DNA of 24,000 bases from Sphingomicrobium sp. (GCA_035637935.1 DASRAY010000139.1:12500-36499), one strand, 5' to 3'; positions 2,382 to 14,728 are shown, numbered from the stretch's first letter. Notes: generated from the sequence alone by a model not told the origin. Numbers and translations: made by a program.

Positions 2382-3398
2382 ATGAGAACATTCTTTCGCG
2401 GTCGAGGGGCCGTGTACTTCAGCGTGCTGTGCGCGGCGGGAATTGCCGCCGGCGCCGCTGCCGCAACGGCCAATCCCCAGGGTCGCCCCGCCGACGCTTA
2501 TTCGAGCCCGCGCGCCGGCAACTCCTATAATTGCGCGGCCCAGGCGACCGTCGCCGACACGGTCGCCGACTGCGACCAGATCCGCAGTCGAGGGCGGGGG
2601 TCCGTGTGGAAGGCAGCGGTCGGCCTCGCCGTCGCCGATGCCGACATCGCCCTGCGCAGCCGGACCTGTTATTCGAGCGGCGACGGGCTTCCGGCCGCCC
2701 AGGACCTGCTCCTCGACGGACCGGAGCTTCCGGCCAGCTATCCCGACGGCAGCTTCGCGGTGCGCGGCTTCGCTCGCGACGGGTGGCCGATCGTCATCGA
2801 TTTCAAGCCGCAGCCCGGCACCGTCACGCAAATGGAGGTCACGGTCGCCAGCGGCGGCCGGCAGGTCACGCGGACCATGATCGTCGACGCCGACGGCAGC
2901 CGCGGGCGGCAGCTGATCAAGGTCGCGGCCCCGCCGACGGGTGCGCGCACGCCGACGCCGGCGATCTACGTCCTGTCGTCGATCCCGATCGCCGCGCTCG
3001 ATGTCGACCAGCCGCAGTCGGTCGACCCGGCGCCGCTCCAGGTGTTCGGCATGGGCGGCGGGCCGCGGGCGGTCGGATCGGTCGCGATCGAGCAGCTCGA
3101 TTTCGCGCGCGCATCCGTCGGCGCGCGCTTCCGCTTCGTCGCCAAGTCCGAGTTCAGCCAGGTGCGGGCGCAGGTTCAGCGGCTCGGCCGCGAGGGCGAT
3201 CGAACGGTGATCGCCCCGGTGTTCGACGCCCGCCAGGTCAATCTCAACGTCGGCCGCCATGGCGGCGACTGGCCGGGGACCGCGCCCGGCACGCGCGGCC
3301 TGTCGAAGGGACCGCACCGCCTCCAGGTCACCGCCTGGTTCACCACCGACGATCGCAGTTGGGTGGCCGCGATCGCTCCGAACATCGTCGTGCAATGA
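2382..3398 (+). CDS. Secreted protein of unknown function (operon gene 1)
   Basis: 338 aa. Sec-type signal peptide MRTFFRGRGAVYFSVLCAAGIAAGAAAATA|NPQ, with a basic n-region, hydrophobic core and AxA site. The rest looks beta-rich and contains no motif I recognise. Its stop overlaps the next start (ATGA at 3395-3398). Confidence 0.7.
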   Translation: MRTFFRGRGAVYFSVLCAAGIAAGAAAATANPQGRPADAYSSPRAGNSYNCAAQATVADTVADCDQIRSRGRGSVWKAAVGLAVADADIALRSRTCYSSGDGLPAAQDLLLDGPELPASYPDGSFAVRGFARDGWPIVIDFKPQPGTVTQMEVTVASGGRQVTRTMIVDADGSRGRQLIKVAAPPTGARTPTPAIYVLSSIPIAALDVDQPQSVDPAPLQVFGMGGGPRAVGSVAIEQLDFARASVGARFRFVAKSEFSQVRAQVQRLGREGDRTVIAPVFDARQVNLNVGRHGGDWPGTAPGTRGLSKGPHRLQVTAWFTTDDRSWVAAIAPNIVVQ

Positions 3399-12538: not shown

Positions 12539-14728
12539 ATGGCGGTGAGTAGTGCCGACGCACCGCGATCGTTCGTCGATTTTGCACCCTTCGAGCCGTT
12601 TCTGCGCGAATATGGGACAACGATCCGGGTGCTCGAGGAAGCGCGGCAATTTGCCTCGGTCGCGCGCGACGGCGGGTCCGACGCACCGCCGGTGGCCGAA
12701 CTCGACGAGGTCGCGCTGCTGCTCGGAATCGGCTCGGTCGGGCTGGAAATGCGCGGCGTCAATTCGTCCACCACCTGGTTCGTGGAATGGCTCCAGGCCG
12801 GCGCCTTCAAGGTGGATGAAGTCCTGAGCGAACAACGTCAGCGCTCCGGGGCGTCACAGGTGCCGCTCAACGGTGCGGCAATTCCATCGGACAGCGTTCG
12901 AGCGCGAGTCCTGCCGCTCGCGGTCGCGCTCGCCCGCCGCACCGTCAACCGGGATCGTGCCGACGCGCGTCACCTCCTCTTCGCCCTGCTGAGCCAGCCG
13001 CCGGGCAACTTCGGGCCGTTCAGCGATCGGGCCGACGGGACCGCGCTCCGGCAGGCGCGGCAGATGATCGTCGATCACATCCAGTCGAGCCACGAGGAGG
13101 GCGAGGACCTCGCGGCGTGGCAGCAGTTCGTCACCGAGCCGCTGCTGGCCGAACGCGGCGCGTCGTCATCCGAGCCATCGGCGCCGTCGGAGGATGCGGC
13201 CTTCGCCGCCGGGCCCTCCCGACTATCCGAAACCGTCGGCACTTTGTCGGACGCGCCAGCGCTGGTCGACGCGCTCGGCCGGCAGGCGTTCGCCGAGGTG
13301 CTCGCGACCCGCGGCAAGCAGGTGTACGAAACGCTGCGGTCGGGGACGCTCGGCAACGATTCTGCGTTCATCCTGCATATCGATGGCCCGTGGGGCTCGG
13401 GCAAATCGTCGATCCTCAATTTCCTGAAGACCAACCTCGAACAGTCCGACCCGCCGTGGCTGATCGTCGAGTTCAACGCCTGGCGAAACCAGCAACGCTC
13501 CCCGGCCTGGTGGCCGATCATCTCCCACGTGTGGGGGGCCGTCCGCCGCGAGAGCCCCTTCAAGTTCAAGATGGCGCGCTGGGTGTGGCTCAGATGGACG
13601 ATCCGGATGCGCTGGATTCCGGTGGCGCTCAGCCTCGTGCTGACGGGTGTGCTGCTGTATTTCGCCTGGCAAGCCGTCGCCGGCCATACCGAGGGTGTTG
13701 CAGGAGCGGTCAAGGATATCGGGGCCGCGGTGCTCGCTCTGGCCACGCTCGCCGGACTCGCGCTGACCACGAGCCGGACGATTTTCTTCGGATCGAAGAA
13801 CGCCGCCGAAGCCTATGTGCAGTCGACGGTCGAGCCGTATCGGCCGATCGTCCGGCTGTACGAGCGCCTGATCGGGGCAATCGGTTGCCCGGTCGCAGTG
13901 TTCATCGACGACATCGACCGCTGCGAAGGCAATTACGTGATCGAATTGCTCGAGGGCATCCAGACTCTGCTGCGCTCAGCGCCGGTGGTCTATGTCGTGG
14001 CCGGCGACCGCAAGTGGATCTGCTCCAGCTTCGAGAAGCGTTATTCCGATTTCGGCGGGCAGATTGGCATGCCCGGCCGCCCGCTCGGCTATCTGTTCCT
14101 CGACAAGGTTTTCCAGCTGTCGACCGCGATCCCGCGCCTGTCGACGGTTCGCCAGGCCGATTATTGGAAGCGCCTGCTCGAAACCGGGGAAAACGGCGCG
14201 CGCTCCTCCCCCCGAGACGTCAAGCGGCTCGAGGCCGAGGCTGAGAAGGAGCTGGAAGGGAAGACCAGCCACGAGGAGATACAGGCGGAGATCGACCGGA
14301 CCGAGGAGGGCAGCCTCGAGCGCGAGACGATCCGCGCCGCGGCCGCGAAGCAGACCACCAGCCGCGAGGCGATGCAGGCCGCGGAGCATCGGCTGCAACC
14401 GCTGTCGCACCTGCTCGAGCCGAACCCGCGATCGATGAAGCGGCTGGTGAACGCCTATGGCCTCAACCAGGCCCGCGCGTTCCTCGAAGGGCGGACGGTC
14501 GAAGTCGAGGCGCTCGCGCGCTGGACGATCGTCGAGCTGCGCTGGCCGATCCTCGCCGACTATCTGGCGACCAACTGGAGCGACATCGCCGACCAAAGTC
14601 TGTCTGTCGCGCAATTTCCGGACAGTATCCGCGCTCTGCTTTCGGATTCTGACGTGAAGGAGGTCTTCGGGCATGACGGGGACGGCATGCCCCTCACCCT
14701 TGCGACGCTGGGACCGATCCTCGAGTGA
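12539..14728 (+). CDS. KAP-family P-loop NTPase with TM helices inserted in the NTPase domain and an N-terminal Clp_N-like double repeat
   Basis: Real start ATG 12539 (5 nt after the previous stop); the upstream part of track ORF 12296..14728 is off-frame overlap. Walker A HIDGPWGSGKSSILNFL (about 13384-13410). Hydrophobic insert WIPVALSLVLTGVLLYFAW ... AAVLALATLAGLALTT (about 13570-13790). Walker B VAVFIDDIDRC (about 13892-13925). TM segments between Walker A and B are the defining feature of KAP NTPases. N-terminal TIRVLEEARQFA...VALLLGIG and RARVLPLAVALA...ARHLLFALLSQ resemble the two Clp_N repeats. Confidence 0.85.
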   Translation: MAVSSADAPRSFVDFAPFEPFLREYGTTIRVLEEARQFASVARDGGSDAPPVAELDEVALLLGIGSVGLEMRGVNSSTTWFVEWLQAGAFKVDEVLSEQRQRSGASQVPLNGAAIPSDSVRARVLPLAVALARRTVNRDRADARHLLFALLSQPPGNFGPFSDRADGTALRQARQMIVDHIQSSHEEGEDLAAWQQFVTEPLLAERGASSSEPSAPSEDAAFAAGPSRLSETVGTLSDAPALVDALGRQAFAEVLATRGKQVYETLRSGTLGNDSAFILHIDGPWGSGKSSILNFLKTNLEQSDPPWLIVEFNAWRNQQRSPAWWPIISHVWGAVRRESPFKFKMARWVWLRWTIRMRWIPVALSLVLTGVLLYFAWQAVAGHTEGVAGAVKDIGAAVLALATLAGLALTTSRTIFFGSKNAAEAYVQSTVEPYRPIVRLYERLIGAIGCPVAVFIDDIDRCEGNYVIELLEGIQTLLRSAPVVYVVAGDRKWICSSFEKRYSDFGGQIGMPGRPLGYLFLDKVFQLSTAIPRLSTVRQADYWKRLLETGENGARSSPRDVKRLEAEAEKELEGKTSHEEIQAEIDRTEEGSLERETIRAAAAKQTTSREAMQAAEHRLQPLSHLLEPNPRSMKRLVNAYGLNQARAFLEGRTVEVEALARWTIVELRWPILADYLATNWSDIADQSLSVAQFPDSIRALLSDSDVKEVFGHDGDGMPLTLATLGPILE

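Follow-up and report, generated by a model that had tools for sequence, protein, structure and literature searches.

A composite multi-hydrolase operon divergent from a compact contractile injection system in Sphingomicrobium

The operon described here lies at positions 2382-14728 of a 24,000-nucleotide (nt) stretch of Sphingomicrobium sp. DNA (GCA_035637935.1 DASRAY010000139.1:12500-36499), the whole of which we call the window; its ten genes, g1 to g10, are divergent from the operon of a contractile injection system (CIS). The operon is a composite and not a single machine gated by its KAP NTPase: it is made of an envelope or uncharacterised module (g1-g3), an amidase (g4), a g5-g7 set, a trypsin-NucA protein (g8) and a facultative cassette (g9-g10). 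A prediction made earlier from the sequence alone had taken the ten genes for one undescribed system. The novelty lies in a minimal fibre-less CIS being stably linked, in physical and probably also in regulatory terms, to a fixed operon of several hydrolases assembled from immune-like modules, and in the optional g9-KAP cassette; the CIS, the protease-nuclease of System 3/LypC type and the KAP NTPase each belong to a kind that is already known. The explanation that we favour, which in our judgement stops a little short of being probable, is that immune-like hydrolase modules, latent in the cytoplasm, were co-opted as a regulated death or lysis arsenal that is co-regulated with a fibre-less, membrane-docked CIS. 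The features on which the argument depends are the following (aa, amino acids).

2149-2200, no strand assigned: intergenic element between the divergent operons, GACGACTCGACC...ACTATATTGAAACAA...TTGCGAGT, inverted arms around an AT-rich core
184-1356, minus strand: CIS sheath, 390 aa, second gene of the divergent compact CIS operon, Phage_sheath_1 and Phage_sheath_1C
1359-2096, minus strand: c0, first CIS gene, C-terminal CarboxypepD_reg-like beta-sandwich (Pfam 3.8e-07, just below the curated cut-off)
2382-3398 (gene caller start 2412), plus strand: g1, secreted or periplasmic protein, 338 aa, Sec-like N-terminus MRTFFRGRGAVYFSVLCAAGIAAGAAAATA followed by NP
3395-4483, plus strand: g2, inner-membrane protein, 362 aa, predicted transmembrane segments 18-36 and 327-356 around a periplasmic domain of ~290 aa (hydropathy)
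4480-5667, plus strand: g3, cytoplasmic protein, 395 aa, disordered Ser/Thr/Pro-rich N-terminus, conserved C-terminal AGGSYRxRK..LSYSGGA motif
5686-6420, plus strand: g4, leaderless Amidase_2 (N-acetylmuramoyl-L-alanine amidase of PGRP/T7-lysozyme type; Pfam 3.8e-11), acidic C-terminal tail
6425-6709, plus strand: g5, 94-aa protein accompanying the g6-g7 pair
6709-7521, plus strand: g6, leaderless metzincin of astacin/matrixin type, motif HELGHVLGFRHEH, N-terminal extension of ~85 aa (Astacin 1.1e-07, Peptidase_M10 9.5e-06)
7527-9458, plus strand: g7, thermolysin-fold (M4-like) metallopeptidase, disordered N-terminus 1-45, C-terminal beta domain
9466-11550, plus strand: g8, trypsin-like serine peptidase fused to NucA/Endonuclease_NS, 694 aa, conserved N-terminal region of ~110 aa
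11560-12534, plus strand: g9, protein of 324 aa, Cys-His motif like that of papain/NlpC-P60, opens the facultative 3' cassette
12539-14728, plus strand: g10, KAP-family P-loop NTPase, 729 aa, N-terminal domain of ~260 aa, two-helix membrane insertion

Joint inheritance of the operon and the injection system

The source of the window is a metagenome contig of 38 kb (ERZ27256644 k141_5498296); the genes were also found on three other contigs. Gene models were built from frame-specific G+C content at third codon positions and from independent gene calls on all four contigs, and both approaches gave the identical set of ten plus-strand genes. From g1 to g10 the junctions measure -4, -4, +18, +4, -1/-4, +5, +7, +9 and +4 nt, and the overlapping start/stop motifs ATGA, ATGTGA and GTGATG were confirmed; the tight co-directional packing described in the original prediction is therefore borne out, with spacers of -4 to +18 nt. 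The same holds for its account of a secreted first protein, a two-transmembrane second protein and hydrolases devoid of export signals: hydropathy gives g1 a Sec-like signal and g2 two transmembrane segments, and hydropathy with regular expressions only finds no N-terminal hydrophobic segment, Tat motif or lipobox in g3-g9. Judged from their sequences, the hydrolases are intact, with conserved catalytic residues and no export signals.

The neighbouring CIS, which had also been named, is real, with sheath, gp19 tube, VgrG, gp25 and Baseplate_J all present. Its operon extends past the left end of the window (window 1-2096 plus positions 9348-19577 of L005; numbers of this kind denote fetched loci) and reads c0, sheath, gp19-type tube, two uncharacterised genes of which one is CIS_tube-like, VgrG, a 115-aa protein, gp25, an 850-aa Baseplate_J protein, a P2_I-like protein and a small protein with an N-terminal transmembrane segment (c10). 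The c0 gene starts at ~2009 according to gene callers (216 aa; the longest open reading frame gives 245 aa), occupies the same position in all relatives and in a Deinococcus plasmid CIS, and evolves fast, being 31% identical in Sphingomonas horti as against 69% for the sheath. Within this 11-gene cluster and its flanks on the 38-kb contig, Pfam recognised no AAA+ ATPase (Afp15-like), cap, tape measure or tail fibre, although c0 and c3 could be a divergent cap or tape measure.

The clade that carries this CIS was sampled through three species of the Genome Taxonomy Database found via g8, all long metagenome loci found via the sheath, L008, and L124/L125. The divergent operon is present in every sufficiently long fetched locus of the clade. 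At least five Sphingomonadales lineages have retained the CIS together with g2-g8, in the same gene order and spacing, over a range of g8 identity from 97% down to 55%; g1 is present in all lineages but one, the sub-lineage L124/L125, which retains g2-g10. In S. horti, the identities of 66% for g4, 67% for g6, 62% for g7, 55% for g8 and 69% for the sheath exceed those of 32-46% for g1-g3 and 31% for c0. The best-conserved block of the intergenic alignment, S. horti included, is the element at 2149-2200. Its pattern occurs once in the window, where none is expected by chance; each of 30 loci of the CIS clade has a single copy (for example at 2699-2749 in L009 and 1833-1882 in L124), and the remaining fetched loci have none. 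We regard it as a candidate operator or promoter shared by the two operons.

Compact systems of the same lineage, of 11-13 genes, also exist without g1-g8. The sheath is 45-53% identical to those of collinear CIS on Deinococcus, Paracoccus, Rhodovulum and Streptomyces plasmids, and on the Paracoccus, Deinococcus and Rhodovulum plasmids (L129 16001-26375, L130 15287-27204 and L131 15458-27193, respectively) c1-c9 are collinear with those of the window and 31-61% identical. There, the gene after the baseplate genes encodes a bitopic protein with a cytoplasmic N-domain, one transmembrane helix and periplasmic PASTA repeats, and a small protein with an N-terminal transmembrane segment follows. By analogy, the PASTA protein resembles the Streptomyces adaptor CisA in position and topology. 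The Sphingomonadales clade is without the PASTA protein and has g1-g3 and c10. Literature searches for CIS in connection with PASTA domains, Sphingomonas or KAP gave nothing relevant. The trypsin and GH19-PG_binding-trypsin genes beside the Paracoccus CIS were considered as a second instance of the association and rejected, as their products carry Sec signals. On the plasmid of Deinococcus sp. AJ005 (L130 1-14513), AbiEi, PIN, HNH, integrase and vWA/PP2C/AAA genes precede the compact CIS, one more instance of this lineage lying next to genes of conflict systems.

The 3' end of the operon behaves differently from the rest. The window, L008, L011, L012 and L124/L125 lie at the same chromosomal position, with a common epimerase/NDUS4/M13 flank, which allows the slot between g8 and the epimerase gene to be compared. 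It holds g9 and the KAP gene in the window, in L011 (g8 97% identical) and in L124/L125 (74%), is empty in L012, a Sphingomicrobium metagenome-assembled genome (MAG; 77%), and in L008 (79%) contains, on the opposite strand at 12304-14951, an Mrr_cat/NA-iREase protein and an N6_N4 methyltransferase-Mrr fusion. In Sphingomonas horti MAH-20 (55%), the CIS and g1-g8 are followed by unrelated signalling genes, with no g9 or g10. The pair g9-g10 behaves as a facultative cassette, and the variable slot that it occupies is of a type where defence genes are housed. Since L008, L012 and S. horti keep the CIS and g1-g8 intact while missing g9 and the KAP gene, the KAP NTPase cannot be an obligatory gate, and the claims of the original prediction that the ten genes form one system and that the NTPase gates the arsenal do not stand; the hydrolase modules, moreover, are mostly found elsewhere, apart from the CIS and from each other. 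In the window, g10 and the convergent UDP-GlcNAc 2-epimerase gene share their last 35 nt (14694-14728), and in L012 the g8 stop codon abuts the same epimerase end, a pattern that fits gain or loss of the cassette precisely at this boundary.

The modules and their relatives elsewhere

Pfam supports the assignment of g8 (Trypsin_2 9.3e-21, Endonuclease_NS 2e-39), and 11 diverse homologues all preserve its catalytic H135/D180/S258 and its DRGH motif. Relatives occur at more than 588 species loci in Alphaproteobacteria, Acidobacteriota, Planctomycetota, Bacteroidota, Actinomycetota, cyanobacteria and Bacillota, and not on viral contigs. Among the best 80 of these loci, whose neighbourhoods were surveyed, g8 stands alone in about 76, and another operon gene or a CIS lies within 10 kb only in the three species of the CIS clade; clustering of all open reading frames within 5 kb of 78 loci found no neighbour conserved across lineages, only lineage-specific synteny. 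Some homologues sit in multi-paralogue trypsin/NucA operons, and on a Bacillus cereus plasmid a homologue lies among PG-binding, SpoIID, S8 and PGRP genes. The CIS-free operon of an Aestuariivirga MAG (L035 3169-12121) encodes a NucA-like protein, an EAD1-trypsin, an EAD1 protein, an uncharacterised protein, a double Amidase_2 and a trypsin-NucA; its EAD1 matches are weak, and by its gene content it reads as a textbook case of "System 3 with EAD1". At the Phenylobacterium g8 locus (L090) there are no lypAB-like neighbours.

The metallopeptidases g6 and g7 form a pair that also exists without a CIS (L091 and L092, 55-60% identity). No Pfam model matches g7, the Peptidase_M4 models included. Its AlphaFold2 model (pLDDT 80.7, pTM 0.84) matches thermolysin, vibriolysin and aureolysin in Foldseek with a probability of 1.00 and reaches a TM(target) of 0.53-0.60 for thermolysin and vibriolysin, and the residues H237, E238 and H241 (HELTH), H263 and E264, and D268 (HE..D) are invariant in 41 homologues. 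On the strength of the modelled fold and the ligand motif, together with the missing Pfam M4 match, we assign g7 to a distant, separate thermolysin-fold family. At E<=1e-5, over 3,660 homologues were obtained, and Pfam recognises a domain in none of them; viral contigs gave only distant matches to the catalytic core, and PADLOC 2.0 does not include it. An Amidase_2-caspase fusion precedes the g7 homologue of L093 (1757-6611). On plasmids, the neighbours of g7 relatives are patatin-like phospholipases, MBL-fold hydrolases or an AAA ATPase, or else the relative is fused to an S8 peptidase adjoining a cell-wall hydrolase (partner loci L133 5825-10540, L160 4818-9473, L159 3598-9345, L134 6965-10443 and L132 2757-8860), and genes of CBASS and Hachiman (DUF1837 plus helicase) lie in the same islands, together with an ImmA/HTH pair and an AAA+HNH pair. 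Conflict systems are marked by just this arrangement, in which one component stays the same within defence islands and its effectors are exchanged, and the g7 family therefore looks like an undescribed defence-island module with the peptidase as its fixed part.

The amidase g4 has an endolysin as its best PHROG match (4e-18) and no match among NCBIfam AmpD-type models. Among proteins not linked to a CIS, the N-domain of the 647-aa double-amidase protein of the L035 operon is closest to it (54%). Pfam has no family for g5, and in L091, a locus without a CIS, a 131-aa homologue (40% over residues 25-72) immediately precedes the g6-like/g7-like pair.

The g1-g3 module was found in this Sphingomonadales CIS clade only. 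Searches of Pfam, PHROG, NCBIfam and the Protein Data Bank (PDB) returned no match to g1, and g2, likewise matched by no family, is confined to the CIS clade among the fetched loci. The g3 family is small, with 81 cluster representatives among 1.84 billion proteins and 26 at E<=1e-10; 41 members carry no Pfam domain except in unrelated fusions. A kinship between g3 and the proteins beside g9-like genes elsewhere was considered, and the profile search was negative.

As to the cassette, 38 homologues of g9 keep G144-x-D146-C147 (the Cys of GxDCNG), H227 (the His of GHI) and E261-S262 invariant, a set that looks like the catalytic set of NlpC/P60 or papain-type enzymes. No Pfam match was obtained at E<=10 and no PDB profile match, and the structure model has a pLDDT of 96.3, yet Foldseek matches nothing in the PDB or BFVD. 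The family comprises 158 proteins, which elsewhere are followed by two uncharacterised proteins of ~470-500 aa or are solitary; in one such locus (L126 10001-14843) a PG_binding_1 protein is also present, and a second locus of this type is L127 10001-13580. In g10, KAP_NTPase spans residues 260-640 (Pfam 2.8e-29), with Walker A GPWGSGKS at 283, Walker B FIDD at 453 and transmembrane helices at 355-382 and 387-412; the N-terminal domain of ~260 aa has no Pfam or PDB match. The families named in the original prediction are thus upheld for Amidase_2, metzincin, trypsin-NucA and KAP by Pfam and for the gluzincin by motif and model, and for the NlpC/P60-like g9 in part, by its motif and not by a Pfam or fold match.

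Across the operon as a whole, all-against-all BLAST found no segment shared among the ten proteins, and Pfam at E<=10 found no EAD-type adaptor in any protein or N-terminal fragment. Sequence searches of the PDB were empty for g1, g2, g3, g7, g9 and g10. PADLOC and NCBIfam yielded generic KAP matches (QatA, PifA and PDC-S20 in PADLOC, 1e-18 to 1e-21; 91.4 bits against NCBIfam QatA, where the cut-off is 600) and a weak RT-protease match to the trypsin domain of g8, and PADLOC gave no match to QatB, QatC or QatD. No named PADLOC system therefore corresponds to the operon, as had been supposed from its gene combination.

A possible lysis arsenal, its precedents and its alternatives

The nearest precedent for the hydrolases is "System 3" of Kaur et al. 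(2020), a computational prediction in which a proteolytic cascade deploys NucA with coupled peptidoglycan hydrolases and an NTPase. Like g8, it joins a trypsin-like peptidase and NucA/Endonuclease_NS in one protein, it is mostly alphaproteobacterial, and it has extra peptidases (here g6 and g7), peptidoglycan-attacking effectors that include a papain-like one (here g4 and, by its Cys-His motif, possibly g9) and, in some operons, an NTPase; homologues of g8 do sit in EAD1-bearing operons such as that of L035. It differs in that EAD1, present in a subset of the described systems, or another EAD was not detected here, that the extra peptidases are a metzincin and a thermolysin-like enzyme and not a subtilisin, that the NTPase is a facultative KAP protein and not an optional STAND with a Death-like domain, and that neither the start with envelope proteins nor the attachment to a CIS is described for System 3.

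The second precedent is LypABC of Caulobacter crescentus, a CARD-NLR-like system that controls lysis for the release of a gene-transfer agent (Banks et al., Nat Microbiol 2026, PMC13236601). LypC consists of a trypsin-like peptidase (aa 1-335) and a NucA-type endonuclease (aa 354-662), and the protein and its peptidase activity are required for a non-canonical lysis that releases phage-derived particles without a holin-endolysin pair; one repressor acts over both loci, and the downstream lytic effectors are not known (PMC13236601). Compared by architecture only, LypC (ACL94044.1) and g8 have the same domain order, at 662 and 694 aa; both hosts are alphaproteobacterial, and in both an immune-like module would serve a domesticated phage-derived particle. 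However, the particle here is a CIS and there a gene-transfer agent, the genes here are adjacent and there 2.4 Mb apart, and candidate lytic enzymes (the amidase, g9 and the metalloproteases) share the operon of g8 here. The word "undescribed" in the original prediction consequently needs qualification: the trypsin and NucA set corresponds to System 3 and the LypC architecture has been studied, but no curated defence model covers the operon beyond generic matches.

On the side of the particle, the fibre-less CIS of Streptomyces is cytoplasmic, needs for firing the bitopic membrane adaptor CisA, which is encoded after the baseplate genes, and kills its producer under stress. The sheath of the window is ~45% identical to that of CIS-Sc, an extracellular CIS (eCIS) of type IId, tail fibres are absent from both, and relatives of the window CIS encode the PASTA protein in the place of CisA. 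In contrast, the window CIS is much smaller (~11 genes, without a Pfam-recognisable AAA+ ATPase, cap or tape measure), its hosts are Gram-negative, the Sphingomonadales clade has g1-g3 and c10 instead of the PASTA adaptor, and CIS-Sc has no attached hydrolase operon. With Afp, PVC and AlgoCIS the window shares sheath, tube, VgrG, gp25, a gp6-type baseplate and toxin-family enzymes beside the structural genes, but it lacks their fibre, ATPase and DUF4157-type marker, and its candidate effectors are upstream, divergent, fixed across lineages and of the same architecture as CIS-free homologues. The KAP P-loop domain of g10, with its membrane insertion, is like that of QatA, PifA and PDC-S20, and its slot holds a restriction-modification-like pair in a relative; g10 differs in having no QatB/C/D, in being partnered by the novel g9 family and in its distinct N-terminal domain of ~260 aa. 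Of a tailocin or phage lysis cassette, the endolysin-like amidase g4 is present, and PHROG holin and spanin families have no match in the operon; g1 and g2 exceed holins of usual size by a wide margin.

If immune-like modules were indeed co-opted in this way, the hydrolases would be kept latent in the cytoplasm, their N-terminal extensions acting as pro-regions, until a trigger such as infection or envelope stress leads a shared regulator to de-repress both operons. The metzincin would then act on the thermolysin-like enzyme and this on the trypsin, with mutual activation; we propose such a cascade because one has been put forward for System 3 and because LypC requires its peptidase. The envelope proteins would dock the CIS at the inner membrane, and its firing would breach the envelope, upon which the amidase, and g9 where present, could reach peptidoglycan, and NucA and the proteases could destroy the cell contents. 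The outcome would be regulated death or lysis of the producer, possibly with release or expulsion of particles. Where present, KAP may be an extra membrane-associated sensor or switch with g9 as its own effector. There are no immunity-type genes for a nuclease or amidase among the proteins of the window, and self-directed enzymes therefore fit better than inter-bacterial toxins. A more specific proposal, which we consider doubtful though worth stating, is that a cytoplasmic, membrane-docked, fibre-less CIS of a Gram-negative host is hard-wired through one control region to a fixed immune-derived arsenal and forms with it a programmed lysis or abortive-infection device, in which the CIS breaches the envelope and a LypC-like cascade executes.

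Several points weigh against the lysis-arsenal explanation. The association of CIS and operon is limited to a single clade of family rank and may simply reflect synteny by descent, and each partner occurs without the other elsewhere, the plasmid CIS without g1-g8 and the modules mostly without a CIS. Promoter and terminator consensus scans were uninformative in DNA of ~67% G+C and gave no helpful sites. The resemblance of g8 to LypC is one of architecture, the LypABC partners LypA (CARD-trypsin-ATPase) and LypB (NLR-like ATPase) are not among the genes of the window, and the endonuclease activity of LypC is dispensable for lysis (Banks et al., PMC13236601). Co-regulation, zymogen status, the order of the cascade and the location of the CIS are all inferred.

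Part of the same evidence would suit an explanation in which g4-g5, g5-g7, g8 and g9-g10 are each an anti-phage or abortive-infection module in its own right; they would have gathered beside the CIS, a neighbour of no mechanistic significance, and been condensed into a single transcript. We rate this as possible but unlikely. The modules are autonomous and often lie in defence islands, as the g7-like genes beside CBASS, ImmA/HTH, AAA+HNH and Hachiman do, and g8 is mostly solitary; the alternation of g9-KAP with a restriction-modification-like pair in the 3' slot is typical of hotspots; the KAP protein resembles QatA, PifA and PDC-S20; and the Deinococcus plasmid CIS is flanked by AbiEi, PIN, HNH and vWA/PP2C/AAA genes. 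However, defence islands usually turn over fast, and here g4-g8 show the same content, order and tight spacing at identities from 97% down to 55%, invariably pointing away from the CIS across the conserved element. Moreover, g4-g8 share their operon with the clade-specific envelope genes g1-g3, and no PADLOC model matched beyond the generic KAP.

One would argue that the leaderless hydrolases are payloads of the CIS, delivered to other cells or expelled in the manner of a type VI secretion system, with g1-g3 anchoring or loading them, and this use as cargo was among the roles that the original prediction envisaged. Enzymes that need to cross a membrane and have no leader do adjoin, divergently, an injection machine, and the literature describes lineage-specific effector genes as common at the edges of CIS gene clusters. 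The disordered N-termini of g3 and g7 may recall eCIS packaging signals such as those of PVC cargo. Nevertheless, homologues distant from any CIS are collinear with the CIS-linked proteins from residue 1, the conserved N-terminal segments of g7 and g8 included, which speaks against a CIS-specific targeting extension. The effector set is fixed and not variable between lineages, the immunity genes that sister cells would need are missing, neither a fibre or receptor-binding protein nor an AAA+ loading ATPase was detected in the cluster, and the only other CIS of the lineage with protease neighbours, that of Paracoccus, has Sec-signal proteins there, hence not leaderless cargo. Thus we hold delivery as cargo to be improbable.

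That the genes serve ordinary physiology, as an AmpD-like recycling amidase with exported proteases and a nuclease clustered by chance, is very improbable. Amidase_2 does include the cytoplasmic AmpD, and M4, astacin and NucA proteins are often nutritional exoenzymes, but Sec, Tat or lipoprotein signals were not found, g4 scores best against phage endolysin PHROGs and has no NCBIfam AmpD-type match, the families recur in conflict-system and defence-island contexts, and the hydrolases are tightly coupled to the CIS. Weakest of all, and scarcely credible, is one ten-gene system in which the membrane KAP NTPase senses a signal and gates five hydrolases: the ten genes are tightly coupled in the window and in L011, as g2-g10 are in L124/L125, and the logic of an NTPase plus effectors is common in conflict systems, but the g9-KAP cassette is dispensable in three relatives, g9 homologues elsewhere never adjoin a KAP gene, and no adaptor domain is common to the KAP protein and the hydrolases, so that comparative genomics largely refutes this model.

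The lysis-arsenal explanation touches two questions: how the fibre-less cytoplasmic CIS of Streptomyces kill their own cell and by which effectors, and what executes lysis downstream of trypsin-endonuclease modules of LypC or System 3 type. If it is true, the operon names candidates for the lytic effectors downstream of LypC-type proteins, since the candidate executioners (an amidase, two metalloproteases, a protease-nuclease and the optional Cys-His hydrolase with KAP) stand in one operon that a conserved control region joins to a minimal CIS. The cultured carrier Sphingomonas horti MAH-20 makes this link genetically testable. The comparison also flags two uncharacterised families, the thermolysin-fold g7 (>3,600 relatives) and g9, whose fold has no match, and a compact CIS lineage with a PASTA adaptor.

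The right flank of the operon

The right flank consists of housekeeping genes, namely the epimerase, NDUS4, a polyprenyl synthase, an M13 peptidase and a two-component system, and an Rfam scan of the window returned no family. The M13 peptidase gene is single in the window (18820-20847) and a tandem duplicate in L012 (15251-19311) and L124 (15756-19825), where the copies are ~63% and 83-87% identical to that of the window.

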